From NCBI GenBank assembly GCA_965242565.1, contig OZ251457.1, forward strand, positions 451,891 through 515,890: a DNA stretch of 64,000 bases, read 5' to 3'. The notes below the pieces were generated by a model, which was not told the origin of the DNA, ran no database searches, and saw only the letters and a program-made list of their open reading frames with translations. The position numbers and the translations under genes were made by a program. How positions within the stretch are numbered: the stretch's first letter is position 1; each line of letters opens with the position of its first letter. The DNA comes from Dehalococcoidia bacterium. GTDB lineage: Bacteria > Chloroflexota > Dehalococcoidia > Bin125. This document shows, piece after piece, positions 9,579-17,541 of the stretch.

Positions 9579-10880
9579 TTACTCCAGCGCGCCTTCGGCG
9601 GTCAGCGCGTCGATTCGCTCCTGATCGTAGCCGAGCATGCGGCTGAGCACGAAATGGGTGTCTTCGCCCAACCGCGGCGAGGGCGAGACGATCTCGGCGG
9701 GTGTCTCCGAGAAGCGCCAGGGCGGCGCGAGCACGGTGCGCTGGCGCGTCTCCGGCGGGCGGATCGGCACGCCGGCGCCGCGCGCCTGAAACTGCTCCGA
9801 GGCGTGGATGTCCGCGCCCCACATCGAGGGGCTGGCCGGCACGCCCGCTTCACGCAGCGTTTCCGACGCGGCCAGCGCCGACTGCTCGCTCGTCCACGCC
9901 TCAATCGGCGCGCGCAGCTCTTCGCGGTGCTTCCAGCGCCGCAGACCGGTGCGGAAGCGCGGATCGGCGCGCAGGTGATCCAACCCCGCCGCGTCGCACA
10001 GACTCTCCCACTCGGCGTCGTTGCGGCAGGCGATCGCCAGCCACGCTCCGTCGCTGCCATCATCGGAGCCAGACGCGCCGTTGGGCTCGCGCATTGCGGC
10101 GCAGCGGTAGACATCGTGCGGCGCCCAGGCGCGGTGGCCGTTGCCCAGCCGCTCGCCGTCGTCGCCCAGCAGCGAGACGCGTAGAAACTCCTCGCCCATA
10201 TGCATCGCGATCGCCTCGCGCGATGAGGCATCCACAAACTGCCCCAGCCCGGTGCGGTCGCGGTAGTGCAGCCCTGCCAGCATCGCAAACGCGGCCGCCG
10301 TGCCCGCGCGCAGATCGATCGAGCCGCCCATCGTCAGCGGCGGCTCGTCGGGCGCGCCGGAGAGGTAGGCGAGCCCGGCCAGCGCGGCGAAGGTCGGCGC
10401 GTAGCCGGTGTAGTTGCGCTCCGGCCCCGACGCGCCCAGCGCGCTGGCGGAGACCAGCACGATGTCTTCGCGCTGCTCGCGCAGCGACTCGTAGCCCAGC
10501 CCCAGCTTGTCCAGCGTGCCCGGGCGGAAGTTGTCGATCGCGCCGTCCGCCGTCGCCGCCAGATCGCGCACCACCTGCTTCGCGCCATCCTCTTTGAGAT
10601 TGAGCTGAATGGAGAGCTTGTTGAGGTTAAGTTCGTTGAACATCGGCGCCTGGTTGACGCCGCCGCGGAATGCGCCCATCGCCAGCGAGCGCTGGCGGCT
10701 GTGGTCGATCCGCGTGCGCGACTCGACCTTGATCACCTCCGCGCCGAGCAGCGCCAGCAGCATCGCGCCGTACGGTCCGGCCCAGGCCCAGGTGAAGTCA
10801 ATGATCCGCCGCCCCGCCAGCGGGCCGCGATGCGCGATCGACGCGAGCGGGAACTGGCCGTTGGCTCCGTTGCTGGTCAT
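9579..10880 (-). CDS. CoA-transferase family III (CaiB/BaiF) protein
   Basis: RIIDFTWAWAGPYG...AEVIKVE N-terminal signature; 4-nt overlap with the next paralog. Confidence 0.8.
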   Translation of the reverse strand: MTSNGANGQFPLASIAHRGPLAGRRIIDFTWAWAGPYGAMLLALLGAEVIKVESRTRIDHSRQRSLAMGAFRGGVNQAPMFNELNLNKLSIQLNLKEDGAKQVVRDLAATADGAIDNFRPGTLDKLGLGYESLREQREDIVLVSASALGASGPERNYTGYAPTFAALAGLAYLSGAPDEPPLTMGGSIDLRAGTAAAFAMLAGLHYRDRTGLGQFVDASSREAIAMHMGEEFLRVSLLGDDGERLGNGHRAWAPHDVYRCAAMREPNGASGSDDGSDGAWLAIACRNDAEWESLCDAAGLDHLRADPRFRTGLRRWKHREELRAPIEAWTSEQSALAASETLREAGVPASPSMWGADIHASEQFQARGAGVPIRPPETRQRTVLAPPWRFSETPAEIVSPSPRLGEDTHFVLSRMLGYDQERIDALTAEGALE

Positions 10881-12091
10881 GCGATCACTCCCGCCCGCCG
10901 CGCCTGCGCCGGCGTCCAGGGCGCGAGCTGCGGCGCGGTCAGCTCGTTGGTCGCTTCGCCGAGTTGCGGCGCAGGCGCGCGCGCCGCCCTCGGCGTCTCC
11001 GTCCACTCCGCCGCGAACTGCGCGTAGGACGCCGGACCGACCGCTGGATGCTCAAGCGTCTCGAAAAAACCGCGCAGCTGTTCCTGCTCGGAGACCATCA
11101 CCTCCGAGGGGCGCAGCACCGGCCCGGCCGGGGCGCTTTCGGCCTGCAACAGGCGGTAGACCTCGTCGCGCGTCCGGGCGCCCGCCCACTCGTCGATCGC
11201 TTCCTGCGCCGTATCCGCCATCTCCAGCCGATCGCGCAGCTTGCCCTCTTCGTCGTAGGCCCAGGCCGGATCGCCCATCGCGCTCAGCAGCCCGCGCCAC
11301 TGGTGCGGCTGCGGCGTCACTGTGATCACGTGCCCGTCGGCGCAGTCCATCCGCCCGCCGAACGAGGTGCGCCCGCTGCGCATAATCGGCGGCGGCCCGC
11401 CGTCGTTGGCCGCGATCGAGATGTCCACCCGATCGATCGTCATCATCGCCTCCGTCGCCGCCACATCCACGATCTGCCCCTCGCCCGTGCGATCGCGCGC
11501 GATCAACGCCGCCCAGACCGCCAGCGCGAGCGCCAGCCCCGCGTCCGCCTCGTGGACGCGCGCGCCGGCCATGATCGGCGAGCCGCCGTCCGCGCCCAGA
11601 TTGCGCCGCACGCCGGCCGCCGCGCCCGAGGCGTGCGCGCGCGTCAGCGCGCTCGACGGCCATTCGGCGGCGGGTCCGTCCAGCCCCCACGGCGTGAGCG
11701 CGGCGATGATCAGCCGCGGATGCGCCTCGCGCAGCGCCTCCAGTGCCAGCTCCGCCTCTTCCAGGCAGCTGGGCGGCCAATCGGTGACGAGCACATCCGC
11801 ATCGCGCAGCAGCGCCTGGAGGACTCGCTTCCCGGCGGCGGTGAGCAGATCGAGCGCCACGCTGCGCTTCGAGGTGTTGTAGTGCAGGAAGACGGTCGAA
11901 GTCTCGCGCCCCGGCCCGGCGCCGGCAAACGGCGCCATCCGACGCGCCGGATCCCCGCCCGGCGGCTCCACCTTGATCGTCTCCGCCCCCGCGTCGGCGA
12001 GCAGTTTGCCGGCAAACGGCGCAGCCACCTCGGTCGCCAGCTCGACTACGCGCAGCCCGTCCAGCAGCGTCGGTTTCGGAGCGTTCGTCAT
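10877..12091 (-). CDS. CoA-transferase family III (CaiB/BaiF) protein
   Basis: LDGLRVVELATEVAAPFAGKLLADAGAETIKVE signature. Confidence 0.8.
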   Translation of the reverse strand: MTNAPKPTLLDGLRVVELATEVAAPFAGKLLADAGAETIKVEPPGGDPARRMAPFAGAGPGRETSTVFLHYNTSKRSVALDLLTAAGKRVLQALLRDADVLVTDWPPSCLEEAELALEALREAHPRLIIAALTPWGLDGPAAEWPSSALTRAHASGAAAGVRRNLGADGGSPIMAGARVHEADAGLALALAVWAALIARDRTGEGQIVDVAATEAMMTIDRVDISIAANDGGPPPIMRSGRTSFGGRMDCADGHVITVTPQPHQWRGLLSAMGDPAWAYDEEGKLRDRLEMADTAQEAIDEWAGARTRDEVYRLLQAESAPAGPVLRPSEVMVSEQEQLRGFFETLEHPAVGPASYAQFAAEWTETPRAARAPAPQLGEATNELTAPQLAPWTPAQARRAGVIA

Positions 12092-12195
12092 GCCAACAGC
12101 CTCACCGATGCGCAGTCTACGCCCCACCCCCACCCAGGCGACAGCCACCCGGCGATTGGTAGGCTGCGAACAGGACAACGACAGCGAGGCCCACG

Positions 12196-12702
12196 ATGGT
12201 GAGGATGAGGCAAATCGCCCATGAGTTGCTGAAGACAGTCGACGCGTCGGAGCTGCGCGCCGACCCGGCCGCGCTTGTGGCGCAGCTGGAGAGCTTCGAC
12301 GATCGGATCACGATCATGCGCAACGGCAAACCCGCTGTCACCCTCTGGGGCTACGAGCCGACCCCGATTCACAACTGGAAACAGAACGACGAAGGCGAAT
12401 GGGTGGAATACACCCACGACTGGCGGGAGAGTGCGTTCGGGCGCATCGTGCAGCTCGGCGATCTGGCGGCGAAGTTCGACGCGCTCGCCGATGATCTGGA
12501 GGCCAACGCCGGCGGTGCGCTGATCAAATCAGGCGACGAGCGGGTGGCGGAGTTGACGCCCTACCGGCCGTCATGGTTCGGACGTTCGCTCAGGAAGCAC
12601 CAGTTCCTCGACGAACACAACGAACGCATGGACGCTGATCTGGACGCTGATCTGGACGCTGAGCGGGAGGCAAGGGCTGCGGCGTCGGGAGATGGGAGTT
12701 GA
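12196..12702 (+). CDS. Phd/YefM-like antitoxin with a long C-terminal extension
   Basis: N-terminal ...RITIMRNGKPAVTLWGYE beta-strand signature of Phd/YefM; 4-nt overlap with the downstream PIN gene. Confidence 0.5.
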   Translation: MVRMRQIAHELLKTVDASELRADPAALVAQLESFDDRITIMRNGKPAVTLWGYEPTPIHNWKQNDEGEWVEYTHDWRESAFGRIVQLGDLAAKFDALADDLEANAGGALIKSGDERVAELTPYRPSWFGRSLRKHQFLDEHNERMDADLDADLDAEREARAAASGDGS

Positions 12703-13097
12703 TCCTCCTCGACACGCAGACACTGGGCTGGCACGACCAGGCCGACCGCCGCCTCGGTCCACGTACGCGGGCCATGATCGAGCGGCACTGGCGGCAGAGG
12801 GAAGTCGCTGTCTCCGCGCTCTCGTTCTGGGAAATCACGATGAACCGCGACGCCCGGGAATTCCGCCGAATCCCCGACATCCGAGTGTGGCGGAACGATC
12901 TGCTCAAAGACGGGCTGATCGAGATTCCTGTAGATGGTGAGATCGCGATCGCGGCGGGCCGGATCACTGGCATGCACGGCGATCCCGGCGATCGGATCAT
13001 CGTGGCGACCGCGTTTCGCGCCGAAACGCTGGTGACCTCCGACGAGCGGATTATGCGCTGGGGTGGACAGCTCGATCGCGTCTACGCCTACGACTGA
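12699..13097 (+). CDS. vapC: PIN-domain toxin (VapC-like)
   Basis: MILLDTQTL...FWEI...IIVATA...TSD PIN acidic-residue pattern. Confidence 0.75.
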   Translation: MILLDTQTLGWHDQADRRLGPRTRAMIERHWRQREVAVSALSFWEITMNRDAREFRRIPDIRVWRNDLLKDGLIEIPVDGEIAIAAGRITGMHGDPGDRIIVATAFRAETLVTSDERIMRWGGQLDRVYAYD

Positions 13098-13174
13098 GCG
13101 GCCGCCGACGCCCGCGCCCATCCTCCTAAAGGCCTGCCAGCTATTGGTACGCTGGCAACGGATCGGAGCCAACC

Positions 13175-13663
13175 ATGGTGATGGCGGAGGACACAGCCCT
13201 CGCAGGCTTGACGGTGCTGGACGCCACGGAACTGGCGACCCGCTGCCAGGAAATCGTGGATCAGGCTGTGCGCAGCGAGGACCGGCTCGTGCTCACCGGC
13301 GACGGCCGCCCCATCGCCTACCTGGAGCGCTACGAACCGCCGCCGCGGCCGTTCTACGTGCGCCCGTCGCCTGAGGGCGGCGGCGCATCCGAGCGCGTCT
13401 ACCGCGAGGTCGTTGAGACCATCCATCGGTCCGTCAAGGTGGCGGAGTTGCAAGCGCAATCGCCCGACCTGGTCGAGCAGGCCGCCGCCAACGACTGGCG
13501 GGTGTTGATCTGGAACCGCAACGGTCCCGACGCGATGCTCATCCGCTACGCCCGGCGCGGCCGTCAGACCTCGCCTGTCACCGCGGTCAACGACATTGAC
13601 TGGGATGTCGGCGAAGTGTGGAACGCCACCCTCGACGGTCCGACGGCGGGCGAGTTGCTGTGA
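13175..13663 (+). CDS. Phd/YefM-like antitoxin (extended, 162 aa)
   Basis: LTVLDATELATRCQEIVDQAVRSEDRLVLTGDGRPIAYLERYE matches the Phd/YefM fold pattern; stop overlaps the GTG of the next PIN gene. Confidence 0.55.
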   Translation: MVMAEDTALAGLTVLDATELATRCQEIVDQAVRSEDRLVLTGDGRPIAYLERYEPPPRPFYVRPSPEGGGASERVYREVVETIHRSVKVAELQAQSPDLVEQAAANDWRVLIWNRNGPDAMLIRYARRGRQTSPVTAVNDIDWDVGEVWNATLDGPTAGELL

Positions 13664-14058
13664 TTCTGTCCGACACGCAGACGCTCTACTGGTGGCGCGA
13701 GGATCGCGGGCGTCTTGGTACGAACGCGCTCGCGGTGCTTGATGCGGCGTGGGATGCACGCAACCTGGCGGCCTCTGCAATCTCATTCTGGGAAATCGGG
13801 ATGCTCGAGTCGAAGGGGCGGCTGTCGCTTCCTGTCAACGCCGACCAATGGCGGCTGGACCTGCTCAACGAAGGGCTTGCGGAGATACCCGTCGATGGCG
13901 GAATCGGCCTCCGCGCGGCCTACCTCGCCAACTTCCATGGCGACCCTGCGGATCGCATCATCGTCGCGACCGCCCTCAACGACCATCAACTCCTGACCAC
14001 AGATCGCGAAATCCTGGATTGGGATGGCCCGCTTCAGCGCATCGACGCTCGGCGATAG
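13660..14058 (+). CDS. vapC: PIN-domain toxin (VapC-like), GTG start
   Basis: VILSDTQTLYWW...FWEIGM...IIVATAL...TTD. Confidence 0.7.
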   Translation: MILSDTQTLYWWREDRGRLGTNALAVLDAAWDARNLAASAISFWEIGMLESKGRLSLPVNADQWRLDLLNEGLAEIPVDGGIGLRAAYLANFHGDPADRIIVATALNDHQLLTTDREILDWDGPLQRIDARR

Positions 14059-14106
14059 CCGCTGCCATGGAAAGCTCGGTACGCTGACGGCGGATCGGAG
14101 CCGAGC

Positions 14107-14607
14107 ATGGTGATGGCGGAGGACACAGCCCTCGAAGGTTTGACGGTGGTGGACGCCGCGGAATTGGCGACCCGCTGCCAGGAAATCGTGGATCAGGCCG
14201 TGCGCAGCGAGGACCGGCTCGTGCTCACCGGCGACGGCCGCCCCATCGCCTACCTGGAGCGCTACGAACCGCCGCCGCGGCCCTTCTACGTGCGCCCGTC
14301 GCCTGAAGGCGGCGGCGCATCCGAGCGCGTCTACCGCGAGGTCGTCGAGACCATCCACCGGTCCGTCAAGGTGGCGGAGCTGCAAGCGCAATCGCCCGAC
14401 CTGGTCGAGCAGGCCGCCGCCAACGACTGGCGGGTGCTGATCTGGAACCGCAACGGCCCCGACGCGATGCTCATCCGCTACTTCTGGGACGGGATGCATC
14501 GCAACTCCGGGATCGACAACGGCGACCTCGTCACGGCGGTCCGCGAGCTGCGCGACGAGATGGCCGCGGAAGCCGAGCGGTCAATGAACCGAAGGTTCCC
14601 CCCATGA
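14107..14607 (+). CDS. Phd/YefM-like antitoxin. Residues 1-125 are nearly identical to the 13175..13663 paralog; the C-terminus is unrelated
   Basis: Direct comparison of the two translations: only three substitutions in the first 125 aa, then complete divergence after ...DAMLIRY. Confidence 0.55.
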   Translation: MVMAEDTALEGLTVVDAAELATRCQEIVDQAVRSEDRLVLTGDGRPIAYLERYEPPPRPFYVRPSPEGGGASERVYREVVETIHRSVKVAELQAQSPDLVEQAAANDWRVLIWNRNGPDAMLIRYFWDGMHRNSGIDNGDLVTAVRELRDEMAAEAERSMNRRFPP

Positions 14608-15002
14608 CGATGTTCGACACACACACGCTGCTCTGGTGGCGGTTGGAACCTCATCGGCTGAGCCCGGAGGCCAAGCGAGTCAGCGGCAGTGCTTTCCTCC
14701 GCGGCGAGCTGGCGGTGTCGGTGATCTCGTTTCAGGAGATCGGACGCTTGGTCAGGCGAGGCCGCGTGACGCTGCCGACCGATCTGCGGACTTGGCGTCG
14801 GCAGCTGTTGGACGAAGGTTTAGTGGAGTTGCCGGTCGACGGCGAAATTGTCCTGCGAACGCACGAGCTTGCCAATCTGCCGGCCGATCCCGCTGATCAG
14901 CTGATCGTCGCGACGGCGGCGGAGCGTCACACGCTGATCACCGCCGATGACGAAATCTACGATTGGCTGGGCCCGCTTGACCGCGTCCGCGCCGACGATT
15001 AA
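14604..15002 (+). CDS. vapC: PIN-domain toxin (VapC-like)
   Basis: MTMFDTHTLLWW...FQEIGRL...LIVATA...TAD. Confidence 0.7.
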   Translation: MTMFDTHTLLWWRLEPHRLSPEAKRVSGSAFLRGELAVSVISFQEIGRLVRRGRVTLPTDLRTWRRQLLDEGLVELPVDGEIVLRTHELANLPADPADQLIVATAAERHTLITADDEIYDWLGPLDRVRADD

Positions 15003-15029
15003 CCCCTGCACGTTAGACTCAACGCCAGC

Positions 15030-16241
15030 GTGACTGACACCAACACCCCCCAGGACACTCCCCGCCCCTTTGACGGCGTCCGCGTGCTCGAGCTCGCCGA
15101 GGGCATCTCCGGTCCCTTCGCCGGGCGCTGGCTCGCCGCGCTCGGCGCTGACGTCGTCAAAATCGAGCGCACCACCGGCGACCCCTCCCGCGCCTTCGGA
15201 CCCTGGCCCGACGACCTCCCCGACGACGAAACCAGCGGCCTCTACCTCTACCTCAACGGCGGCAAGCGCAGCGTCACGCTCAACCTCGACACCTCCGACG
15301 GGCGCGCGATCCTCGAAGAGCTGGCGGCCGACGCCGAAATCGTGATCGAATCGTTCGCGCCCGGCTACCTGGCCGAGCGCGGACTGGACTACGACGCGCT
15401 CTCCGCACAGCGCCCCCAGCTGGTGATGATCTCAATCACTCCCTTCGGCCGGACAGGCCCCAACGCCGACCTGCCCGCCACCGAACTCACCCTCTTCGCC
15501 GCCTGCGGCCAACTCTGGCTAACCGGCGACCCGGCCCGTACCCCGCTCAAAAACGGCGGCTCGCAGCCCTCCTACCAGGCTGGCCTCAACGCACTCGCCG
15601 CCGTCGCCGGCGCCTACTACGGCGCGCTCGCCCACGGACAGGGCGCGCACATCGACCTGGCCATGCAGGAAACCTACGCCGCCATGGCCGAAGCCTTCAT
15701 GACCCGCGCCTCCCAACTCGGCATCGAGACGCTCCGCTCCGGCAACAACCTCAACGCCCTCTGGGGCATCTACCCCACCGCCGACGGCTACGGCGGCGTC
15801 TGCGCCCTCCCGCGCAACTTCCCCGGCCTCGTCGAAGCGCTCGACATGGAGGAAATCCGCGATCCCCGCTTCGCCGAGCCCGCCGGCCGCCTCGAACACA
15901 ACGACGAGCTGATCGCCCTGCTCTACGGCTGGTTCGCCCAGCGCACCCGCGAGGATCTGACCGAACTCGGCCTGCGCCACCGCGTCCCCTTCGGCTACGT
16001 CGCCTCGATCGCCGACCTCGTCGAATCCGAACACCTCAAACAGCGCGACTTCTTCATCCAACAGGACCACCCCCGCGCCGGCGCGCTCACCTTCCCCGGC
16101 CGCCTCTGGACCAGCAGCGAGCACGACTGGCGCAGCGACCGCGCCCCCGAACTCGGCGAACATAACGTCGCCGTCCTCCACCAGGAGCTCGGCTACGACC
16201 TCGAAGACCTCGTCCGCCTCCGCGAACTCGACGCCATCTAG
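15030..16241 (+). CDS. CoA-transferase family III (CaiB/BaiF) protein (GTG start)
   Basis: FDGVRVLELAEGISGPFAGRWLAALGADVVKIE signature. Confidence 0.8.
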   Translation: MTDTNTPQDTPRPFDGVRVLELAEGISGPFAGRWLAALGADVVKIERTTGDPSRAFGPWPDDLPDDETSGLYLYLNGGKRSVTLNLDTSDGRAILEELAADAEIVIESFAPGYLAERGLDYDALSAQRPQLVMISITPFGRTGPNADLPATELTLFAACGQLWLTGDPARTPLKNGGSQPSYQAGLNALAAVAGAYYGALAHGQGAHIDLAMQETYAAMAEAFMTRASQLGIETLRSGNNLNALWGIYPTADGYGGVCALPRNFPGLVEALDMEEIRDPRFAEPAGRLEHNDELIALLYGWFAQRTREDLTELGLRHRVPFGYVASIADLVESEHLKQRDFFIQQDHPRAGALTFPGRLWTSSEHDWRSDRAPELGEHNVAVLHQELGYDLEDLVRLRELDAI

Positions 16242-16254
16242 GGAGCGCCGCATC

Positions 16255-17541
16255 ATGCCCGACCCCGGCCGACCCCTCAGCGGCGTCCGCGTCGCCGACC
16301 TCACGATGATCTGGGCCGGCCCTTACGCCACCAAAATCCTCGCCGACCAGGGCGCGGAGGTGATCAAAATCGAATCCCCCCGCGCCTGGGACAACATCCG
16401 CACCCTGCTCCCGCCGCCCACCGCGCCCGGCGAGCGCTGGTGGAACACCAACTTCTACTTCCACGAGTACAGCCGCAACAAAAAGTCGCTCAGCCTCGAC
16501 CTCGCCGCGCCCCGCGGCAAGGAAATCTTCGCCCGCCTCGTCGCCGAGTGCGATGTCGTGATCGAGAACTACCGCACCGACGTGATGGACAACCTCGGCC
16601 TCAGCTACGACTGGCTGCGCAAGCAGCGCGAGGACATCATCGTCGTCGGCATGGCCGGCTTCGGCAAAACCGGCCCCGAGCGCAACGCCGTCGGCTATGG
16701 GCCGATCATCGAGATGATGTCCGGCCTCACCTCCACCAGCGGCTACGGCGACGACGGCATGCCCTACAAGAGCGGCATCTCCTACGGCGACCCCATCGCC
16801 GGCGTCACCGCCGCCGCCGCCGTCGCCACCGCCCTCATCCACCGCCGCCGCACCGGACGCGGCCAATACATCGACCTCTCCCAGCGCGAAGCCATGTCCA
16901 CGATGCTCGGCGAGTTCTATATGGACTGGTCGATGAACCGCCGGCTGCCCGAGCATCAGGGCAACGGGCACGACTGGATGGCCCCGCACAACATCTACCC
17001 CTGCGCCGGCGAGGAGGAGTGGATCGCCATCTGCGTCCGCACCGACGCCGAGTGGGAATCACTCAAGCAGGTCATGGGCGCCCCCGCCTGGGCGGACGGC
17101 GAGGAATACTCAGACCAAATCTTCCGCTGGGAGCACCGCGAACAGCTGGACCGCGCAGTCGCCGAGTGGACCTCGACGCGCAGCAAAACCGAGCTGTTCG
17201 GGTCCCTGCGCGACGCCCGCATCCCCTCCTCACCCGTCTGGAAGACGCTCGAAGTGATCCGCGACCCGCACCTCAAGGCCCGCGGCTACTACGAGCCGCT
17301 CCACCACCCCGAAGTCGGCATCTGGAACGTCCACGGCTGGCTCTGGCGCACCGCCGGCGCAGGTCCCTGCGTGCTCGCCCCCGCCCCCGACTTCGGTCAA
17401 CACAACGACGAAATCCTCGGCGGCCTGCTCGGCCTCAGCGCCGAAGAGCAGGCGGCCCTCGAAGCCGCCGGCATCACCGCCGCCCGCCCCGAAGGCATCC
17501 CCTTCGCCTCCGAAATGCCCGCCCAACCCTCCCTCATCTAA
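16255..17541 (+). CDS. CoA-transferase family III (CaiB/BaiF) protein
   Basis: LSGVRVADLTMIWAGPYATKILADQGAEVIKIE signature. Confidence 0.8.
   Translation: MPDPGRPLSGVRVADLTMIWAGPYATKILADQGAEVIKIESPRAWDNIRTLLPPPTAPGERWWNTNFYFHEYSRNKKSLSLDLAAPRGKEIFARLVAECDVVIENYRTDVMDNLGLSYDWLRKQREDIIVVGMAGFGKTGPERNAVGYGPIIEMMSGLTSTSGYGDDGMPYKSGISYGDPIAGVTAAAAVATALIHRRRTGRGQYIDLSQREAMSTMLGEFYMDWSMNRRLPEHQGNGHDWMAPHNIYPCAGEEEWIAICVRTDAEWESLKQVMGAPAWADGEEYSDQIFRWEHREQLDRAVAEWTSTRSKTELFGSLRDARIPSSPVWKTLEVIRDPHLKARGYYEPLHHPEVGIWNVHGWLWRTAGAGPCVLAPAPDFGQHNDEILGGLLGLSAEEQAALEAAGITAARPEGIPFASEMPAQPSLI

Follow-up and report, generated by a model that had tools for sequence, protein, structure and literature searches.

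Probable Recurrent Gene Conversion Between Neighbouring Tandem-Phd Antitoxin Genes in a VapBC-like Array of Dehalococcoidia

The array and its shared antitoxin block

We describe an array of toxin-antitoxin (TA) modules in a 64,000-nucleotide stretch of DNA ("the window") from an uncultured Dehalococcoidia bacterium (assembly GCA_965242565.1, contig OZ251457.1, positions 451,891 to 515,890; positions below are those of the window unless a locus name precedes them). Between 12196 and 15002, six open reading frames (ORFs) on the plus strand form three antitoxin-toxin pairs, A1-T1, A2-T2, and A3-T3 (Table 1). The antitoxin gene is upstream in each pair, and its stop codon overlaps the toxin start by 4 nt in all three (TTGA, GTGA, and ATGA in modules 1, 2, and 3, respectively). 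Two small, translationally coupled genes with the antitoxin first are the organization expected of VapBC-class operons. The second and third antitoxins share an almost identical body that is followed by unrelated tails and different toxins, and this body has probably been homogenized by recurrent gene conversion.

A2 and A3 are identical at 122 of their first 125 residues. At the nucleotide level, the similarity extends over a 404-bp block, from 29 nt upstream of the start codon (-29) to the end of codon 125 (+375), within which 386 of 404-405 nucleotides are identical (95.5%, ungapped comparison). Identity outside the block is 46/111 directly downstream and 23/91 upstream. Maximum chi-square analysis places the breakpoints at -29 and +375, and the observed value was reached in 0 of 1000 permutations. 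The A2-type and A3-type tails that follow have no detectable homology to each other (hhalign probability, 0.1%). A2 and A3 form a recombinant mosaic in which the block stops abruptly on either side; its two copies are direct repeats of ~404 bp, 932 bp apart. An earlier reading of this DNA from sequence alone (hereafter, the sequence-only reading) had noted the near-identity of residues 1-125 and a break right after ...DAMLIRY, both of which are borne out by the nucleotide alignment. It had also put the shared upstream DNA at about 45 bp, which is too long: the truly upstream shared stretch is only ~29 nt.

This short leader takes in just a -10-like TAnnCT element and a Shine-Dalgarno sequence. 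The same two elements (TAnnCT and GGAGC) are the only invariant features of 11 upstream regions from different genomes, and the TAnnCT elements are putative promoter parts. Short inverted and direct repeats do occur upstream of A1, A2, and A3 and are not kept between modules or genomes. A scan for consensus promoters and terminators yielded no terminator of relevance and, as promoter-like sites, only two that are antisense. No Rfam match was found across 11900-15300.

The array is bounded by two CoA-transferase genes on each side, all four of which match CoA_transf_3 (PF02515) and point away from the array. This agrees with the sequence-only reading, which had placed three consecutive plus-strand modules with overlapping stop and start codons between four CoA-transferase paralogs. 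The start of T2 is most likely the GTG at 13660, rather than 13618 of a longer ORF, because the resulting 132 residues match T1, T3, and the orthologs called elsewhere, and because the GTGA overlap is then retained. Two antisense ORFs of 232 and 238 aa cover the antitoxin genes (13088-14499, minus strand). The plus-strand frame has dN << dS and the G+C content is high, which indicate that these antisense ORFs are spurious.

Table 1. Features of the array and its flanks (aa, amino acids; positions in the window).
Feature	Position	Strand	Evidence or remark
Antitoxin A1, 168 aa	12196-12702	+	ORF; tandem-Phd type, own tail
12-nt perfect tandem repeat, x2.8, within A1 tail	12629-12662	+	TRF
Toxin T1, PIN/VapC, 132 aa, TTG start	12699-13097	+	Pfam PIN 32.4 bits
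Shared block copy 1 (29 nt upstream + A2 codons 1-125)	13146-13549	+	Nucleotide comparison
TACGCT, -10-like TAnnCT, upstream of A2	13148-13153	+	Invariant across 11 upstream regions
GGAGC, Shine-Dalgarno of A2	13165-13169	+	Invariant across 11 upstream regions
Antitoxin A2, 162 aa	13175-13663	+	Tandem-Phd body 1-125; type-2 tail 126-162 containing DIDWDVGEVWNATLDG
Toxin T2, PIN/VapC, 132 aa, GTG start	13660-14058	+	Pfam PIN 28.4 bits
Shared block copy 2 (29 nt upstream + A3 codons 1-125)	14078-14481	+	Nucleotide comparison
TACGCT, -10-like TAnnCT, upstream of A3	14080-14085	+	Invariant across 11 upstream regions
GGAGC, Shine-Dalgarno of A3	14097-14101	+	Invariant across 11 upstream regions
Antitoxin A3, 166 aa	14107-14607	+	Pfam, TIGR01552, AlphaFold2 model
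Toxin T3, PIN/VapC, 132 aa	14604-15002	+	Pfam PIN 36.8 bits
Left CoA-transferase family III gene	10877-12091	-	Pfam PF02515; transcribed away from array
Second left CoA-transferase family III gene	9579-11006	-	Pfam PF02515
Right CoA-transferase family III genes, two	15030-16241, 16255-17541	+	Pfam PF02515

Tandem-Phd antitoxins and PIN toxins

A2 and A3 score barely above the gathering score of the PhdYeFM family (PF02604, 29.8 bits), at 30.6 and 30.4 bits, and also pass the TIGR01552 cut-off (20.8), at 25.2 and 23.8. A1 remains below both (26.6 bits over residues 13-53, and 13.7, respectively) and is homologous to A2 and A3 by alignment, with 27-28% identity over residues 1-110. All three toxins exceed the gathering score of the Pfam PIN family (PF01850, 23.6 bits; scores in Table 1). 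The assignment of the modules to Phd/YefM-type antitoxins with PIN toxins, first made without database searches, is thereby upheld.

Each array antitoxin contains two Phd units. PF02604 matches residues 14-50, whereas TIGR01552 matches best at 87-125, and an hhalign comparison of unit 1 with unit 2 gives a probability of 97.4% (E 1.3e-11, 42 columns). The sequence-only reading had suspected an internal duplication in these long antitoxins, and the separate unit matches and the hhalign comparison support it. Single-Phd antitoxins have ~75-105 aa per chain; the array antitoxins, with two units per chain, have 162-168 aa.

Structure prediction gives the same picture. An AlphaFold2 model of A3 (m5c3e9ae8c5f7), built from a diverse 45-sequence alignment, has a mean pLDDT of 81.4, rising to about 90 within residues 11-125. 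Both Phd units are predicted to be beta-alpha-beta-beta: unit 1 (residues 13-52) comprises strand 13-16, helix 17-33, and strands 38-42 and 45-52, and unit 2 (85-124) comprises strand 85-88, helix 89-105, and strands 110-114 and 117-124. They are joined by a beta-hairpin linker (60-76; strands 60-64 and 72-76). A low-confidence disordered hinge (126-137) follows unit 2 and leads into a tail helix (138-160). An earlier AlphaFold model from 34 closely related sequences had a pLDDT of 55, and we draw no claims on the fold from it. A Foldseek search of the Protein Data Bank (PDB) with the A3 model gave no significant whole-chain match; the matches with the highest probability (0.35-0.51, none significant) are YefM/RelB-type antitoxins that each cover about half of the model. 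Unit 1 has profile matches to RelB (9G12) and Rv2865 (3G5O), with E values of ~1e-3.

Unit 2 and the tail of A1, A2, and A3 can together be aligned with a canonical Phd antitoxin of 94 aa, which also aligns with unit 1. Motifs are shared with canonical antitoxins (RPSWFGRSLR in A1 versus RPESWFGRDR; DIDWDV..W in A2 versus PIDVEWEA). The alignment and the shared motifs thus suggest that an additional Phd unit and a linker have been placed ahead of a complete canonical single-Phd antitoxin, in which one Phd unit carries a putative toxin-binding tail of ~40 aa. This scaffold is very rare. When 1.84 billion representative proteins were scanned exhaustively with HMMER, only 8 full-length clusters reached E <= 1e-10; word-indexed searches recovered 33 and 6 clusters, and the scaffold is limited to a few Dehalococcoidia clusters.

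The A1 tail carries a further repeat of its own. This 12-nt tandem repeat (TGGACGCTGATC, x2.8) encodes DADLDADLDAE, and its copy number varies between genomes: A1 has 168 aa in the window and in L006, 164 in L010, and 161 in L009 (L numbers denote loci in other genomes).

T1, T2, and T3 all retain the acidic residues D5, E45, D95/D98, and D115, and each toxin is predicted to be a PIN-domain RNase whose acidic active site is intact. T2 and T3 are 51.5% identical to each other, T1 and T2 46%, and T1 and T3 42.5%. The PIN toxins of A2 and A3 had been called only distantly related; at 51.5% identity, they are better described as distinct types. T2 belongs to a very large family that is named VapC in the source databases (at least 2274 matches), and one database protein (P0081) is 100% identical to it. 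The closest relatives of T2 outside the array (54-61% identity) are partnered with single-Phd antitoxins of the ordinary kind, 94-130 aa long. A sequence search of the PDB with T3 gave no match.

One partner of a close T2 relative is a 130-aa single-Phd antitoxin (L012:2112-2504) in which the tail motif is repeated (FGLNKGRYEIIGDL and FGIDRGRLQIVGDI). Here it would be the toxin-binding region that is duplicated, and not the Phd unit.

Block evolution and array turnover in related genomes

We compared the block among the five genomes, from three clades of uncultured Dehalococcoidia, that carry both A2 and A3. The edges of the block are identical in all five. Within a genome, the two copies share 86-97% of their nucleotides, versus 70-79% between same-type copies from different clades. 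The same holds for synonymous divergence (dS), which is 0.11-0.44 within genomes and 0.59-1.09 between clades. In the block tree, the clades that hold both types have bootstrap values of 0.99-1.0, and monophyly of all A2 copies was recovered in 0 of 500 replicates. In contrast, tails and toxins group by type, and the toxin types are monophyletic (bootstrap, 0.99-1.0). Because the block groups by genome, tails and toxins group by type, and synonymous sites are homogenized, the similarity of the block is best read as recurrent, patchy, and domain-bounded gene conversion, that is, concerted evolution.

Exchange between A2 and A3 has also been recent: when nearly identical strains are compared, strain-specific alleles are found in both paralogs. 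At offsets 188-198, for example, both copies in L006 differ from both copies in the window. The A3 gene of the window also has A2 alleles at offsets 63-87, where the other A3 copies retain a distinct haplotype.

Two simpler accounts of the near-identity can be set against these data. One invokes strong purifying selection on the N-terminal domain, or convergence there, with no recombination at all; it would fit the low dN/dS of the block (~0.1 in the window). It would leave unexplained that synonymous sites and 29 nt of noncoding upstream DNA are homogenized as well, and that identity stops abruptly; we give this account next to no weight. An assembly artefact, in which a repeat was collapsed or duplicated during metagenome assembly, deserves mention given that every sequence derives from a metagenome-assembled genome. 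The copies nevertheless differ at 13-19 sites and have different flanking contexts, and the same structure recurs in at least five independent assemblies, megabase contigs included, which makes such an artefact extremely improbable.

The sequence-only reading had proposed that recombination swapped toxin-neutralizing tails and their cognate toxins onto a shared N-terminal module. The mosaic itself, and a tail that travels with its toxin, are confirmed. What does not stand is a single event, since the block groups by genome. A single ancient domain swap, with divergence ever since, would account for the abrupt breakpoint and for tails without detectable homology, and it is compatible with T2 and T3 resembling VapCs of other phyla at least as much as they resemble each other. 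It predicts, however, that the copies within a genome are at least as diverged as same-type copies from different clades, and the opposite is seen in all five genomes, synonymous sites included. The strain-specific alleles found in both paralogs likewise show recent exchange. We therefore consider a single swap very unlikely as the explanation of present-day identity.

As the origin of the block, an ancient transplant fits better. The best identities of the array toxins to VapCs of other phyla are 54%, 61%, and 55%, and those between array neighbours are 40-51%. In the toxin tree, bootstrap support is 0.05 for a T2 + T3 clade and 0.14 for one that unites all array toxins. With unrelated tails, and toxins no closer to their neighbours than to VapCs of other phyla, the block may have arisen when the scaffold was transplanted, long ago, onto different tail + toxin cassettes. 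An old duplication, with tails that have since diverged beyond recognition, is a possible alternative origin.

Recovered related loci occupy the same syntenic site between CoA-transferase pairs, and their content is variable. The synteny of the CoA-transferase genes is kept in L004-L010. Three full modules are present in the window and in L004. Modules 1 and 2 are accompanied by an intact A3 in L005, L006, and L007, where T3 is deleted to ~35 nt. There are two modules in L008, L010, L001, and L002. L009 has three, the middle one composed of a divergent A1'-type antitoxin (38% identical to A1 of L008) and a chimeric toxin, while L003 holds only a truncated A2-type remnant. Overall, the array varies in at least four module types, with gains and losses.

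The T3 remnants consist of ~35 nt of the 5' end (L006:6433-6500, L007:6433-6500, and L005:5501-5559) and come from two different clades. A3 is full-length and conserved where T3 has been deleted, leaving an orphan antitoxin. The remnant in L003 (L003:6001-6306) is a 5'-truncated A2-type gene ~115 nt upstream of the right-hand CoA-transferase gene; the left flank of this locus is not syntenic.

Several of these arrays have junctions that point to recombination. Upstream DNA in the two-module array of L010 has the A2 context up to a point between -25 and -20, within the block, where A3 alleles take over. This is what an unequal crossing-over that deleted module 2 would be expected to leave. The module-1 antitoxin of L001 is ~95% identical to the A3-type antitoxin beside it from -60 to codon 48, after which similarity breaks abruptly (L001:4987-5190 versus L001:5941-6145). 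L001 represents a second class of mosaic, with a different conversion boundary that lies after Phd unit 1. In L009, the middle toxin is of the T1' type over ~93 residues and ends in ~125 nt that nearly match T2 of the window, with the junction at a conserved HGDPADRIIVAT motif. This doubly chimeric module suggests an ancestral array of four modules. These derivatives show that the homology behind the conversion also yields changes in copy number and chimeric modules.

The middle antitoxin of L009 (L009:4075-4951) has a divergent A1'-type body in which the first ~10 codons are A2/A3-like. Gene calls had suggested that the toxins of this locus are truncated, a possibility we rejected after retranslation, as both are intact and one is chimeric.

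The turnover of modules raises a different explanation, in which the N-terminal blocks are recent, vertically inherited duplicates and the same two tail + toxin cassettes were repeatedly imported horizontally at the same breakpoint. A recombination hotspot with cassette-like turnover, with at least four module types gained and lost, would suit this explanation, as would TA genes that are far more diverged in dS between clades than their flanks. It requires, however, that three or more clades each took in the same two cassettes at one and the same codon. Furthermore, the divergence between clades is of similar depth for tail, toxin, and N-terminal tract, and the types are cleanly monophyletic. 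Gene conversion accounts for the data with far fewer events, and we judge repeated import to be improbable.

The contrast in synonymous divergence is itself marked: between clades, dS is 1.2-1.3 for T2 and T3 versus 0.28-0.44 for the adjacent CoA-transferase genes (window, L004, L005, and L008). Possibilities include allelic lineages of greater age that were exchanged through the conserved flanks, a codon-bias constraint on the flanks, and a locally raised rate of mutation or recombination.

Proposed mechanism and relation to known systems

We consider it likely that the locus is an array of three VapBC-like modules with tandem-Phd antitoxins, in which the A2/A3 block is homogenized by recurrent gene conversion. 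What the sequences themselves show is the anatomy of three intact modules, the duplicated Phd unit, domain-bounded concerted evolution of the block, and the recombinant derivatives. Recurrent homologous recombination between the two ~404-bp direct repeats would maintain the near-identity of A2 and A3. Conversion tracts would end where homology ends, at nonhomologous intergenic DNA on the 5' side and at the nonhomologous tail on the 3' side, and tracts that break the match between tail and toxin would be counter-selected. The outcome would be a scaffold that evolves in concert while each tail + toxin evolves independently. The same block homology would also drive unequal crossing-over, leading to changes in module number and to chimeras.

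At the protein level, the two Phd units of a chain might pack against each other as a pseudo-dimer and take the place of the homodimeric body through which such antitoxins usually bind DNA, which would leave one tail per repressor unit. The tail (hinge plus helix) would bind and neutralize only the PIN toxin encoded directly downstream. With a common DNA-binding specificity, A2 and A3 could cross-regulate both modules, while neutralization stays insulated. It is rather doubtful, though conceivable, that the body is a single-chain pseudo-dimeric repressor with one tail and that its concerted evolution has been selected because it keeps one operator specificity. If true, the locus would be a co-regulated multi-toxin array with a shared repressor head, private tails, and insulated neutralization. 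The retention of an intact A3 after toxin loss would then be accounted for as well, with A3 serving as a regulator or an anti-addiction factor.

Several points weigh against these interpretations. No operator was found, with no conserved palindrome or repeat upstream of A1, A2, or A3; with no such palindrome and only 29 nt shared, a regulatory consequence of the conversion is unsupported by the sequence. Conversion may instead be a neutral by-product of proximity. The two copies in L004 are only 86% identical, with a dS of 0.44, and homogenization has therefore not been continuous in every lineage. In addition, all comparison genomes are metagenome assemblies, and the outgroup sample in the toxin tree is biased towards T2-like sequences.

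Antitoxins are generally viewed as a regulatory body joined to a toxin-specific tail, a view that comes mostly from ancient domain shuffling and engineered chimeras. Leplae et al. 2011 and Kurata et al. 2022 (Panacea domain) reportedly describe a modular "mix and match" evolution of antitoxins. The array resembles such cases in that the N-terminal body and the C-terminal neutralizing region are separable. It differs in that the mix-and-match cases concern ancient shuffling between families, seen from domain architectures, whereas the array points to ongoing exchange between adjacent paralogs at the nucleotide level.

The pairing of PHD antitoxins with PIN toxins is common (Makarova, Wolf & Koonin 2009, PMC2701414). 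Like VapBC systems with a Phd/YefM-type antitoxin, the array has antitoxin-first operons with a 4-nt overlap, 132-aa PIN toxins with a conserved acidic tetrad, and antitoxins with an N-terminal Phd unit and a C-terminal tail. Unlike VapBC systems with a single-Phd antitoxin, its 162-168-aa antitoxins have two Phd units and a beta-hairpin linker. Their likeness to YefM/Phd structures (2A6Q, 3D55/3CTO, 3G5O, and 9G12) consists of the profile matches of unit 1 and the nonsignificant Foldseek matches. YefM/Phd proteins have one domain, form homodimers, and are partnered with YoeB, RelE, or Doc, whereas the array antitoxins are covalent tandems partnered with PIN toxins.

Gene conversion has been mentioned for the vapBC25-vapBC31 paralogs of M. 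tuberculosis (preprint PMC13061034). In both cases, paralogs within a genome are homogenized by homologous recombination. In the array, however, conversion would cover one protein module and a 29-nt leader, without the specificity-determining tail and the toxin. Its boundaries are identical in the three or more clades where it recurs, and it goes together with changes in array copy number. In the literature searched, which omits most subscription journals, the vapBC25-vapBC31 mention was the only related report, and we found neither tandem-Phd antitoxins described nor any case of conversion limited to the antitoxin body.

The array is otherwise an ordinary chromosomal TA island of an uncultured organism, and its impact lies mainly in the evolution and specificity of TA systems. 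It amounts to a natural, repeated experiment in which the body and its 29-nt leader have apparently been exchanged between neighbouring modules in several lineages, and the tail and toxin never. This would mark codon 125 as the functional boundary of neutralization specificity. The locus thus offers ready-made chimeras with which to probe insulation versus cross-talk among paralogous VapBC systems. A covalent tandem-Phd antitoxin would also alter the repressor:toxin stoichiometry that is central to models of conditional cooperativity, and would be a useful natural variant in that respect.

Unrelated proteins with two Phd units are also found elsewhere (P0064, 171 aa; P0045, 101 aa; P0046, 103 aa; and P0050, 191 aa). 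The tandem-Phd architecture has thus probably arisen more than once and is not unique to these Dehalococcoidia.

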